Below the pieces are notes generated by a model, which was given only the letters and a program-made list of their open reading frames with translations, did no database searches and was not told the origin of the DNA. A program made the position numbers and the translations under genes. Below, piece after piece: positions 17,356-17,871 of a DNA stretch of 64,000 nucleotides. Within the stretch, counting starts at the first letter, position 1; each line of letters begins with the position of its first letter. Origin of the DNA: Minisyncoccota bacterium (GTDB lineage Bacteria > Patescibacteriota > Minisyncoccia > Phycocordibacterales > UBA9973); NCBI GenBank assembly GCA_041661005.1, contig JBAZVG010000001.1, forward strand, positions 114,116 to 178,115, written 5' to 3'.

Positions 17356-17871
17356 ATGAATGAACAAATAAAAAAAATCAAATATCCGTATGCGGAAGCA
17401 TACAAAATCGCACTAGGGGTTTTAGAGCAACTGAAACCGTATTGCGAAAGAATTGAAATAGCAGGCTCCATTCGTCGCAAGAAAGCCGAGGTCGGAGATA
17501 TAGAGATTGTAGCAATACCAAAACCTTTTGGAATCGACTTATCTCAAGATGGAATAGCGAAAGTAGTAAATCAATGGGAAAAAGTCAAAGGAGAATTACC
17601 ATGTAAATACACACAAAGAATACTTCCTAGCGGAATTAAACTTGATCTCTTCTTCGCGGAAGAAGGAAATTGGGGATTAATCTATGCAATTCGCACAGGC
17701 TCAGCAGAGTTTAGTCGCTATGTTTTAGCTAATGGTTGGGTCCGAAATGAATTCAAGAGTTCGGGTGGGTTTTTATTCAAGTATGGTGAAAAGTTTGAGG
17801 TGAGAGAGGAAAAAGATCTGTTCAATTTAATTGGCATTCATTATGTTGAACCAGAGAATAGAAACTTATAA
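17356..17871 (+). CDS. minimal family-X DNA polymerase / Pol-beta-like nucleotidyltransferase (171 aa)
   Basis: AGSIRRKKAEVGDIEIVAIPKP matches the Pol X GSxRRGKxxxGDxDhLh catalytic motif. The downstream IKLDLFF..NWGLIYAIRTGSAEFSRY and C-terminal HYVEPENRNL line up with the 174-aa ASFV Pol X architecture. Confidence 0.7.
   Translation: MNEQIKKIKYPYAEAYKIALGVLEQLKPYCERIEIAGSIRRKKAEVGDIEIVAIPKPFGIDLSQDGIAKVVNQWEKVKGELPCKYTQRILPSGIKLDLFFAEEGNWGLIYAIRTGSAEFSRYVLANGWVRNEFKSSGGFLFKYGEKFEVREEKDLFNLIGIHYVEPENRNL

Follow-up and report, generated by a model that had tools for sequence, protein, structure and literature searches.

The window analyzed here is a 64,000-nucleotide stretch of contig JBAZVG010000001.1 (assembly GCA_041661005.1, positions 114,116 to 178,115) from a Minisyncoccota bacterium. 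It contains an integrative element of ~9.4 kb (~12567–21978) that is inserted at a tRNA-Asn gene. The element carries, in this order, cargo genes, terminators, an open reading frame (ORF) of 97 amino acids, a hairpin, the gene under study, a primase-helicase gene, a small ORF, and a serine integrase gene that leads into tRNA-Asn. The gene under study (17356..17871, forward strand) reads from ATG to stop and encodes a protein of 171 residues and 19.6 kDa with a pI of 8.4. As judged from sequence comparison and structure prediction, the protein is a stripped-down, stand-alone DNA polymerase of the X family (PolX) with palm and thumb only and predicted activity. We refer to it as mini-PolX. It belongs to a large and strongly conserved prokaryotic family of mobile element-borne, minimal PolX proteins that resemble Pol X of African swine fever virus (ASFV) and lie outside current surveys.

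The gene lies where the initial annotation of the window, made from the sequence alone, had placed it, and the motifs quoted there are all present: AGSIRRKKAEVGDIEIVAIPKP at residues 36–57, IKLDLFF at residues 94–100, and HYVEPENRNL at the C-terminal end. The exact protein is deposited at NCBI as MFA6076594.1, a ‘hypothetical protein’ of a Candidatus Paceibacterota metagenome-assembled genome (MAG) from the candidate phyla radiation (CPR/Patescibacteria), and carries the Joint Genome Institute (JGI) label ‘DNA polymerase/3′-5′ exonuclease PolX’. Sequence search returns homologues with E = 1e-104 to 1e-67. The ratio of non-synonymous to synonymous substitutions (dN/dS) relative to the two closest copies, at loci L009 and L010, is 0.105 and 0.057, respectively. 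Thus, the ORF is a real gene rather than a chance reading frame, and it is under purifying selection.

The thumb of mini-PolX (residues 114–170) matches the Pfam family DNA_pol_B_thumb (PF14791) with 29.3 bits, above the curated cutoff of 25, and this domain is present in nearly all homologues. The Pfam Pol-beta palm (PF14792) stays below its curated cutoff with 17.9 bits over residues 13–60. A profile built from 62 family sequences and searched against all PDB sequences matches X-family polymerases only. The best match is to residues 156–314 of Thermus PolX, covering palm and thumb (E = 4e-8), followed by residues 29–173 of ASFV Pol X (E = 1.6e-5) and by Pol lambda, mu, and beta. An AlphaFold2 model based on the family alignment has a pLDDT of 94.8 and a pTM of 0.88. 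When this model is compared with the PDB by Foldseek, all top 50 matches are PolX structures, including Thermus PolX with a TM score of 0.79. The closest structural matches are Pol lambda, Pol beta, and the ASFV and Thermus enzymes, and over the whole chain the similarity to solved PolXs clearly exceeds that to other nucleotidyltransferases. The sequence of ASFV Pol X used here is identical to that of PDB 1JAJ at 174 of 174 positions. It aligns collinearly with mini-PolX over the full length at 25% identity and shares the YQLDLF/IKLDLF segment and a C-terminal P..R motif, as the initial annotation had proposed. Both checks suggested there, by profile search and by predicted structure, bear out the Pol X assignment.

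The first palm helix forms the N terminus of the protein, and the alignment starts at residue 156 of Thermus PolX and residue 147 of Pol beta. At the C terminus, EPENRNL aligns where Pol beta, Thermus PolX, and ASFV Pol X end. Since mini-PolX spans only from the first palm helix to the canonical PolX C terminus, it contains no 8-kDa, HhH, or PHP domain. Neither Pfam nor the alignment detects an 8-kDa dRP-lyase, HhH, BRCT, or PHP domain, and the ASFV-like architecture of palm and thumb alone agrees with the initial claim that 8-kDa and BRCT domains are lacking. Family members that are extended at the N or C terminus are HNH or DUF4326 fusions or carry unannotated sequence; the missing PolX domains are restored in none of them, and Pfam finds no 8-kDa or HhH match in these proteins either. 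PHROGs, NCBIfam, and PADLOC give no meaningful match for mini-PolX, and thus it is missing from these libraries of phage families, PGAP names, and defense systems. The upstream 97-residue ORF was considered as a source of an 8-kDa/HhH domain in trans, but this idea is unsupported, as the ORF has no similarity to Pfam or PDB entries.

Conservation of the active site was counted in 132 family representatives with 35–62% identity to the window protein. The acidic triad is composed of D48, E50, and D97 (D-E-D), which align with the GS..GDLD and VDL segments of Thermus PolX and with D49, D51, and D100 of ASFV Pol X. Together with G37-S38, the first two carboxylates form the palm motif of Pol-beta nucleotidyltransferases (hG[GS]x9-13Dh[DE]h), and D97 is the third carboxylate, on a neighboring strand. 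These residues are kept in at least 128 of the 132 representatives, with position 50 being Glu in 124 and Asp in 6. From the ‘GD.D’ signature cited in the initial annotation, the preceding GS.RR and the first Asp are found as stated, but the second carboxylate is Glu (G47-D48-I49-E50). Residues G37-S38-I39-R40-R41 form the dNTP motif, and the GSxRR sequence (residues 179–183 of Pol beta) is known as the triphosphate-binding dNTP-binding motif 1 (PMC13252658). The second dNTP motif (YFTGSxxxN, residues 271–279 of Pol beta) is partly retained. Its TGS corresponds to T114-G115-S116, kept in 130, 131, and 107 representatives, respectively, whereas Y-F is changed to I112-R113 and N279 to S120. Canonical prokaryotic PolXs have YF (54%) or HF (40%) in front of TGS. 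Residues G37, S38, R40, R41, D48, D97, G107, R113, T114, G115, E152, P166, and R169 are each conserved in at least 95% of the representatives. By its sequence, the enzyme looks catalytically intact; its fidelity, sugar selectivity, and template dependence are not readable from sequence alone.

The mini-PolX family is widespread. A database clustered at 90% identity returns 3,577 clusters, the top 120 of which all have lengths of ~167–205 residues. An exhaustive search of 50%-identity representatives with a hidden Markov model (HMM) gives 269 clusters at E ≤ 1e-30, and among the best 150 of these nearly all are stand-alone proteins of 156–190 residues. The one-genome-per-species collection of GTDB release 232 contains 251 relatives, and IMG/VR contains 107, many on viral contigs of ~40 kb. 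These numbers overturn the initial statement that such enzymes are rare in bacteria: a PolX of palm and thumb only is rare in the literature alone, not in nature.

In the GTDB set, the CPR carriers belong to Paceibacterota, Saccharibacteria, Moranbacteria, and Nomurabacteria. Carriers in Bacteroidota, with 54–67% identity, include the cultured species Aestuariibaculum suncheonense, Flagellimonas marina, Cecembia rubra, and Belliella calami, and the RefSeq name of the Bacteroidota proteins is ‘hypothetical’. Proteins with 30–45% identity occur in Chloroflexota, Ignavibacteria, Verrucomicrobiota, and DPANN archaea. A single Minisyncoccia MAG (MFD12002 bin51) contains three mini-PolX elements (L009, L014, and L015), whose PolX copies are 70–95% identical to the window protein and whose partner modules differ. 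Mini-PolX has been spread by mobile elements over CPR bacteria, Bacteroidota, Chloroflexota, and temperate phages and has become fixed in DPANN chromosomes.

GenBank records of isolated phages hold just two weak relatives, and matches in BFVD are mostly PolXs of giant viruses, so isolated viruses provide little functional context. Escherichia phage vB_EcoM_IME392 (L089; MH719082.1 9059–9817) encodes a 252-residue ‘putative DNA-directed DNA polymerase family X’ with 25% identity to the window protein. Its gene lies directly upstream of a putative DNA ligase gene, an arrangement that resembles the pairing of polymerase and ligase in ASFV.

In the window, mini-PolX is flanked by a conserved hairpin and the primase-helicase gene. 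The 97-residue ORF (16960..17253, forward strand) is located ~100 nt upstream of mini-PolX and recurs in 6–8 CPR loci. Between the two genes, the hairpin (17283..17335, forward strand) has a 19-bp stem, a folding energy of −28 kcal/mol, and a z-score of −7.4, and no T-tract follows it. It is kept in L009 and L010, where ~100 nt around it are near-identical despite a synonymous divergence (dS) of 0.19–0.55 in the adjacent gene. Possible roles of the hairpin are those of an operator, an attenuator, or an origin element. Further upstream, two intrinsic terminators (16685–16708 and 16735–16751) separate the cargo from the unit formed by the 97-residue ORF, mini-PolX, and the primase.

The primase-helicase gene (17895..19976, forward strand) starts 24 nt downstream of mini-PolX and encodes 693 residues. 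The location of mini-PolX within an integrative element and directly upstream of this gene is as initially described. The helicase half of the protein is certain, being a C-terminal AAA_25 domain of RepA/DnaB type (E = 1.5e-24). The N-terminal part displays motifs of the AEP (archaeo-eukaryotic primase) type, namely D78xD80xD82, H120, and D158..R161..R164. Its profile matches are borderline, with E = 0.014 for RepB_primase and E = 0.026–0.067 for the PrimPol AEP 6zp9, to which the motifs align, and a pairwise comparison with the Pfam-verified Prim-Pol domain of L005 reveals no similarity. Thus, in the initial label ‘PrimPol/helicase’, the helicase holds, whereas PrimPol is weakly supported in this copy.

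The recurrence of this gene context was examined in 84 non-redundant loci, considering neighbors within 3.5 kb. The counts derive from a crude calling of ORFs combined with in-house HMMs and clustering by BLAST, and precomputed Pfam calls back them for individual loci. The most common neighbors are a serine recombinase in 17 loci (median distance +2.7 kb) and a tyrosine integrase in 12. A PrimPol/AAA_25 primase-helicase is a neighbor in 16 of the 84 loci, at a median distance of +24 nt and always on the same strand. In three further CPR loci, a Toprim primase-helicase follows PolX. According to the precomputed Pfam calls, PolX is followed by Prim-Pol/AAA_25 and then a serine recombinase in L001 and L005. 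The order in L006 is PolX, an 84-residue ORF, a Toprim-helicase, and a serine recombinase. The PolX gene overlaps a tyrosine integrase gene in L002–L004. Two arrangements are seen in Bacteroidota: a tyrosine integrase, a 354-residue AAA_25 protein, and PolX; or a DUF5906 primase-helicase, a GIY-YIG gene, and PolX. On the ~40-kb viral contigs, PolX is located among genes for DnaB, a DEAD/SNF2 helicase, C5 and N6 methylases, and an ASCH protein, ahead of the terminase gene.

In three prophage-like loci of Bacteroidota, the gene of an Rv2179c-like 3′-5′ exonuclease overlaps the start codon of mini-PolX, and an ASCH-domain gene comes next (L053, 9444–10516; L055, 7675–8729; L037, 9439–10477). The exonuclease and mini-PolX may constitute a split polymerase/proofreader pair. 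The overlapping exonuclease would correspond, in trans, to the PHP exonuclease domain that canonical PolX has.

In the ~9.4-kb element, mini-PolX is a core component of the replication module and its most conserved gene. On balance, and with somewhat better than even confidence, we infer that it is a distributive, proofreading-free, template-directed short-patch polymerase that performs primer extension or gap filling when the excised element replicates. Following excision, the primase-helicase would open and prime the element DNA. Template-directed synthesis by mini-PolX, short and distributive, would come next: it would lengthen the primers until the host replicase takes over, or close the short gaps that remain between primed fragments. 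In the proposed reaction, D48, E50, and D97 of the palm would bind the metal ions, and the thumb would close over the nascent base pair. As the protein contains neither a proofreading nor a 5′-phosphate-binding domain, it is expected to be distributive and error-prone, in the manner of ASFV Pol X. The gene context, as read from sequence, points more to an element replication module than to a dedicated repair pathway.

A bolder version of this scheme assigns mini-PolX as the dedicated extension polymerase of a two-protein replication module, in which the primase-helicase makes the primer and a 17–20 kDa polymerase elongates it. We regard this version as rather unlikely. If true, the module would be functionally analogous to Pol alpha-primase, and X-family enzymes would be genuine replication factors in prokaryotic mobile elements. 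The family, with members down to ~156 residues, would also comprise the smallest natural DNA polymerases, minimized independently of ASFV Pol X.

Several observations weigh against a replicative gap-filling role. The second carboxylate is Glu rather than the Asp of characterized PolXs. The sugar-contacting Y/H-F dipeptide is replaced by I112-R113, with Arg in 128 of the 132 representatives, and the equivalents of N279 and R283 of Pol beta are S120 and L124. Given the departures at I112-R113, S120, and L124, mini-PolX could differ from Pol beta in substrate choice and template dependence. To our knowledge, no textbook model of plasmid or phage replication requires a PolX-type enzyme, and our literature search found no characterized member of the family.

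The gene context also contains exceptions. PolX lies beside an integrase without a primase-helicase in L002 and L018, and beside a diversity-generating retroelement (DGR) in L008. PolX remains 63–95% identical where the primase-helicase and the recombinase are swapped or have diverged beyond detection. In L009, for example, PolX is 95% identical, the primase-helicase has no BLAST match, and the recombinase, which targets tRNA-Glu, is 24% identical. Since the identity of PolX holds while its partner genes are swapped, it is not bound to one partner. Recombination breakpoints are located at the junction of PolX and the primase gene (17888–17914). Finally, four DPANN loci (L082, L083, L084, and L086) share the order GTPase, PolX, DUF167/YggU, Kae1, and L7Ae and contain no mobile-element genes. 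The DPANN proteins are ~156–177 residues long. In these archaea with tiny genomes, the conserved chromosomal neighborhood without mobile-element genes points to a fixed role in the cell.

The DPANN setting is among the points that favor a repair polymerase instead of a replication factor, the main alternative, which has a minor but appreciable probability. Mini-PolX would then be a short-patch gap-filler acting on nicks, abasic sites, and gaps in element, phage, or host DNA, and it might counter damage inflicted by host defense or offset the reduced repair capacity of tiny-genome hosts. Biochemically this overlaps with the replicative scheme, and the process served is the sole difference. Characterized PolXs are repair enzymes (PMC12926913), the distant Escherichia coli phage homologue directly precedes a DNA ligase gene, three Bacteroidota loci have an exonuclease gene that overlaps the start of PolX, and in DPANN archaea the conserved setting is chromosomal and non-mobile. 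However, genes for a ligase, an abasic-site (AP) endonuclease, a glycosylase, or Ku/LigD are absent from the ~9.4-kb element and its CPR relatives, and the 8-kDa dRP-lyase domain used in base excision is absent from the protein. PolX is instead packed against primase-helicase genes, with gaps of 16–25 nt or overlapping codons, and it occupies the early replication region of prophages. At the other extreme is the reading of mini-PolX as a non-polymerase minimal nucleotidyltransferase of the MNT antitoxin/KNTase type that is Pol X-like only in its GS...D.D/E motif. The hG[GS]...D.[DE] motif is indeed common to the whole Pol-beta nucleotidyltransferase superfamily, D-x-E is more usual in some of its non-polymerase members, and the Pfam palm match by itself falls under the cutoff. 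We reject this reading, which the initial annotation had named as its refutation, as having practically no chance of being right: the PolX thumb scores above its cutoff, the PDB profile matches are exclusively PolXs, the top structural matches are PolXs as well, PADLOC matches nothing, and no HEPN partner gene is seen among the Pfam-annotated neighbors.

A departure from templated synthesis is improbable but has some basis in the active site. The PolX scaffold could serve a template-independent or otherwise non-canonical nucleotidyltransferase, such as a 3′-tailing terminal transferase or an enzyme that uses rNTPs. A Faustovirus PolX truncated to palm and thumb polymerizes without a template (PMC13252658). 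In mini-PolX, I112-R113 stands in place of the sugar-contacting dipeptide, the template-checking position of R283 in Pol beta is Leu, and the second metal ligand is Glu. On the other hand, conservation extends to the elements that position the nascent base pair, the thumb helix and the TGS motif, and the closest structural matches (Pol lambda, Pol beta, and the ASFV and Thermus enzymes) are templated gap-fillers. In addition, a long insertion in the palm, such as the ‘loop 1’ that stands in for the template strand in terminal deoxynucleotidyl transferase (TdT) and Pol mu, is seen neither in the alignment nor in the model. Most unlikely among the roles that keep a PolX fold is a mainly non-catalytic integrase accessory; for instance, a protein of DNA metabolism could have been co-opted as a recombination directionality factor. 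Serine integrases have a diverse set of such factors, among them enzymes that originally served other roles. In ~30 loci, PolX has a serine or tyrosine recombinase gene within 1–3 kb, and it overlaps a tyrosine integrase gene in L002–L004. Against such a role, the catalytic and dNTP-binding residues, needless for a purely structural function, are at least 95% conserved; the gene is distant from any integrase in viral contigs and DPANN chromosomes; and PolX is retained unchanged when the recombinase is replaced by an unrelated one.

ASFV Pol X (O174L; PDB 1JAJ and 5HR9), an enzyme of ~20 kDa, was still called the smallest known DNA polymerase in 2026, and palm and thumb are enough for polymerization both in this enzyme and in the truncated Faustovirus PolX (PMC13252658). 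At 19.6 kDa, mini-PolX is slightly smaller. Both proteins consist of a palm and a thumb within ~170–175 residues, lack the 8-kDa, HhH, and exonuclease domains, and have the GSxRR and TG motifs and three carboxylate positions in common. They differ in the triad, which is D-E-D in mini-PolX and D-D-D in ASFV Pol X. In addition, ASFV H115 and R127 are not kept: H115-F116 corresponds to I112-R113, and R127 pairs with either L124 or A125 in different alignments. H115 and R127 presumably contribute the platform implicated in dG:dGTP misincorporation. The mini-PolX of the window resides on a prokaryotic mobile element, whereas ASFV is a eukaryotic giant virus whose Pol X cooperates with an AP endonuclease and a ligase of the virus; the window element lacks such partners. 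Mini-PolX was probably minimized independently of ASFV Pol X, because the family scores 36 bits against bacterial PolX compared with 28 bits against the ASFV enzyme, and because Faustovirus, an ASFV relative, retains the full PolX core (PMC13252658).

The best sequence-profile match of mini-PolX is canonical PolX (PolX1), represented by the Thermus thermophilus enzyme (3AU2/3B0X) and Bacillus subtilis YshC. Mini-PolX is 31–35% identical to the polymerase cores of the full-length PolXs in L079, L085, L087, and L088. PolX1 has N-terminal 8-kDa and HhH domains and a C-terminal PHP domain with 3′-5′ exonuclease/AP-endonuclease function, all of which are absent from mini-PolX. PolX1 is a chromosomal repair gene, whereas mini-PolX is found on mobile elements. 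A full 8-kDa domain is present in 95.3% of prokaryotic PolXs (2022 survey). The second described class, PolX2, has neither an 8-kDa nor a PHP domain and keeps a conserved active site (Nucleic Acids Research (NAR) 2026 census). According to this census, its members are spread over bacteria, archaea, and viruses, PolX1 is its presumed ancestor, and none of them has been studied. PolX2 bears an extra C-terminal domain, whereas mini-PolX ends at the canonical thumb. Thus, lacking the C-terminal extension, mini-PolX falls outside PolX2 as defined in the published description. Two recent surveys of prokaryotic PolX include only PHP-fused forms and PolX2, and one of them describes X-family enzymes as ‘rare’, with ‘low variability’. 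The mini-PolX form is absent from these surveys, and a search of the literature on PolX, mobile elements, DPANN, and minimal forms found no description of the family.

Small integrative elements that target tRNA genes (tycheposon-like or satellite-like) have an integrase at the tRNA 3′ end, a primase-helicase, and swappable cargo. The mini-PolX elements match this plan, with cargo that includes a TrlF-like ATPase, restriction-modification (R-M) systems, OLD, Abi, and a DGR. Unlike tycheposon-like islands, they contain a large serine recombinase ORF that runs into the tRNA gene and a dedicated mini-polymerase. We know of no description of a dedicated mini-polymerase in these element classes.

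ASFV Pol X has been treated as a viral oddity, and some members of the mini-PolX family have only 156–162 residues, such as the 162-residue Bacteroidota orthologue WP_188214929.1. If active, the mini-PolX enzymes would set a new lower limit to the size of DNA polymerases and revise their natural distribution. An X-family enzyme would also gain a place in mobile-element replication modules, which is not among the recognized roles of the family, and enzymology and enzymatic DNA synthesis would have very small polymerase scaffolds whose active-site surroundings are unusual, with D-E-D as the triad and I-R replacing Y-F. The culturable carriers Aestuariibaculum (A. suncheonense SC17, on an element), Cecembia (C. 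rubra DSM 28057, in a prophage), and Belliella (B. calami, in a prophage) make the role of mini-PolX directly testable.

The remaining genes of the window element comprise cargo, a small ORF, and the integrase. The first cargo gene (12658..15663, forward strand) encodes a TrlF-family ATPase of 1001 residues (NCBIfam NF045780, 608 bits) with a PHP-like N terminus and an ABC/SMC-type ATPase domain, and shows partial similarity to the anti-phage protein Ppl. A partner ORF of 334 residues without a family match (15678..16682, forward strand) follows and precedes the two terminators. By sequence, the cargo at 12658–16682 is probably a two-gene defense system. The same cargo is present in L009 at 96.6% identity, together with a different integrase.

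Downstream of mini-PolX, a small ORF (19855..20133, forward strand; 92 residues as listed, probably shorter) shares the final 120 nt of the primase-helicase gene in a different reading frame, lies just upstream of the recombinase gene, and recurs in five loci. It has no family match in profile searches and is a candidate excision or regulatory factor. An inverted repeat at 20181–20257, with 26-nt arms of 85% complementarity and a 25-nt spacer, is located immediately upstream of the recombinase gene, overlaps its start codon, and may regulate the integrase.

The integrase is a large serine recombinase of 576 residues (20248..21978, forward strand). With its final 13 nt, stop codon included, its gene overlaps the 3′ end of the host tRNA-Asn(GTT) gene (21966..22038, reverse strand), which marks the right junction (attR). 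L001 shows the arrangement of the window, and 8 further loci show it with other tRNA genes. Serine recombinase ORFs that overlap a tRNA gene are found in the window and in L001, L005, L009, L016, L019, L020, L025, and L027. The tRNA gene (Asn, Asp, Glu, Ala, or Tyr) has the opposite orientation, and the ORF extends over 13–47 nt of its 3′ end, so that the C terminus and stop codon of the integrase are encoded by tRNA sequence. Targeting of tRNA genes is usual for tyrosine integrases, not for serine integrases. When the recombinase module is swapped, the target tRNA changes.

The left junction (attL) is placed approximately at 12567..12582, because host synteny with L013 and L015 stops at 12566 and the segment shared with L009 (12583 to 17914, 96.6% identity) starts at 12583. 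When the 3′ end of tRNA-Asn was searched for a directly repeated copy that could mark attL, none was found, which is consistent with a serine integrase. Three different elements, those of the window, L013, and L015, are inserted at one host position (window 12530–12570; L013 1891–1930; L015 6826–6865), indicating an insertion hot spot. This position directly follows a conserved TATACCC..GGGGTATA hairpin and lies beside a gene for a 134-residue membrane protein. The elements of L013 and L015 have a common left-end sequence that is not shared with the window element.

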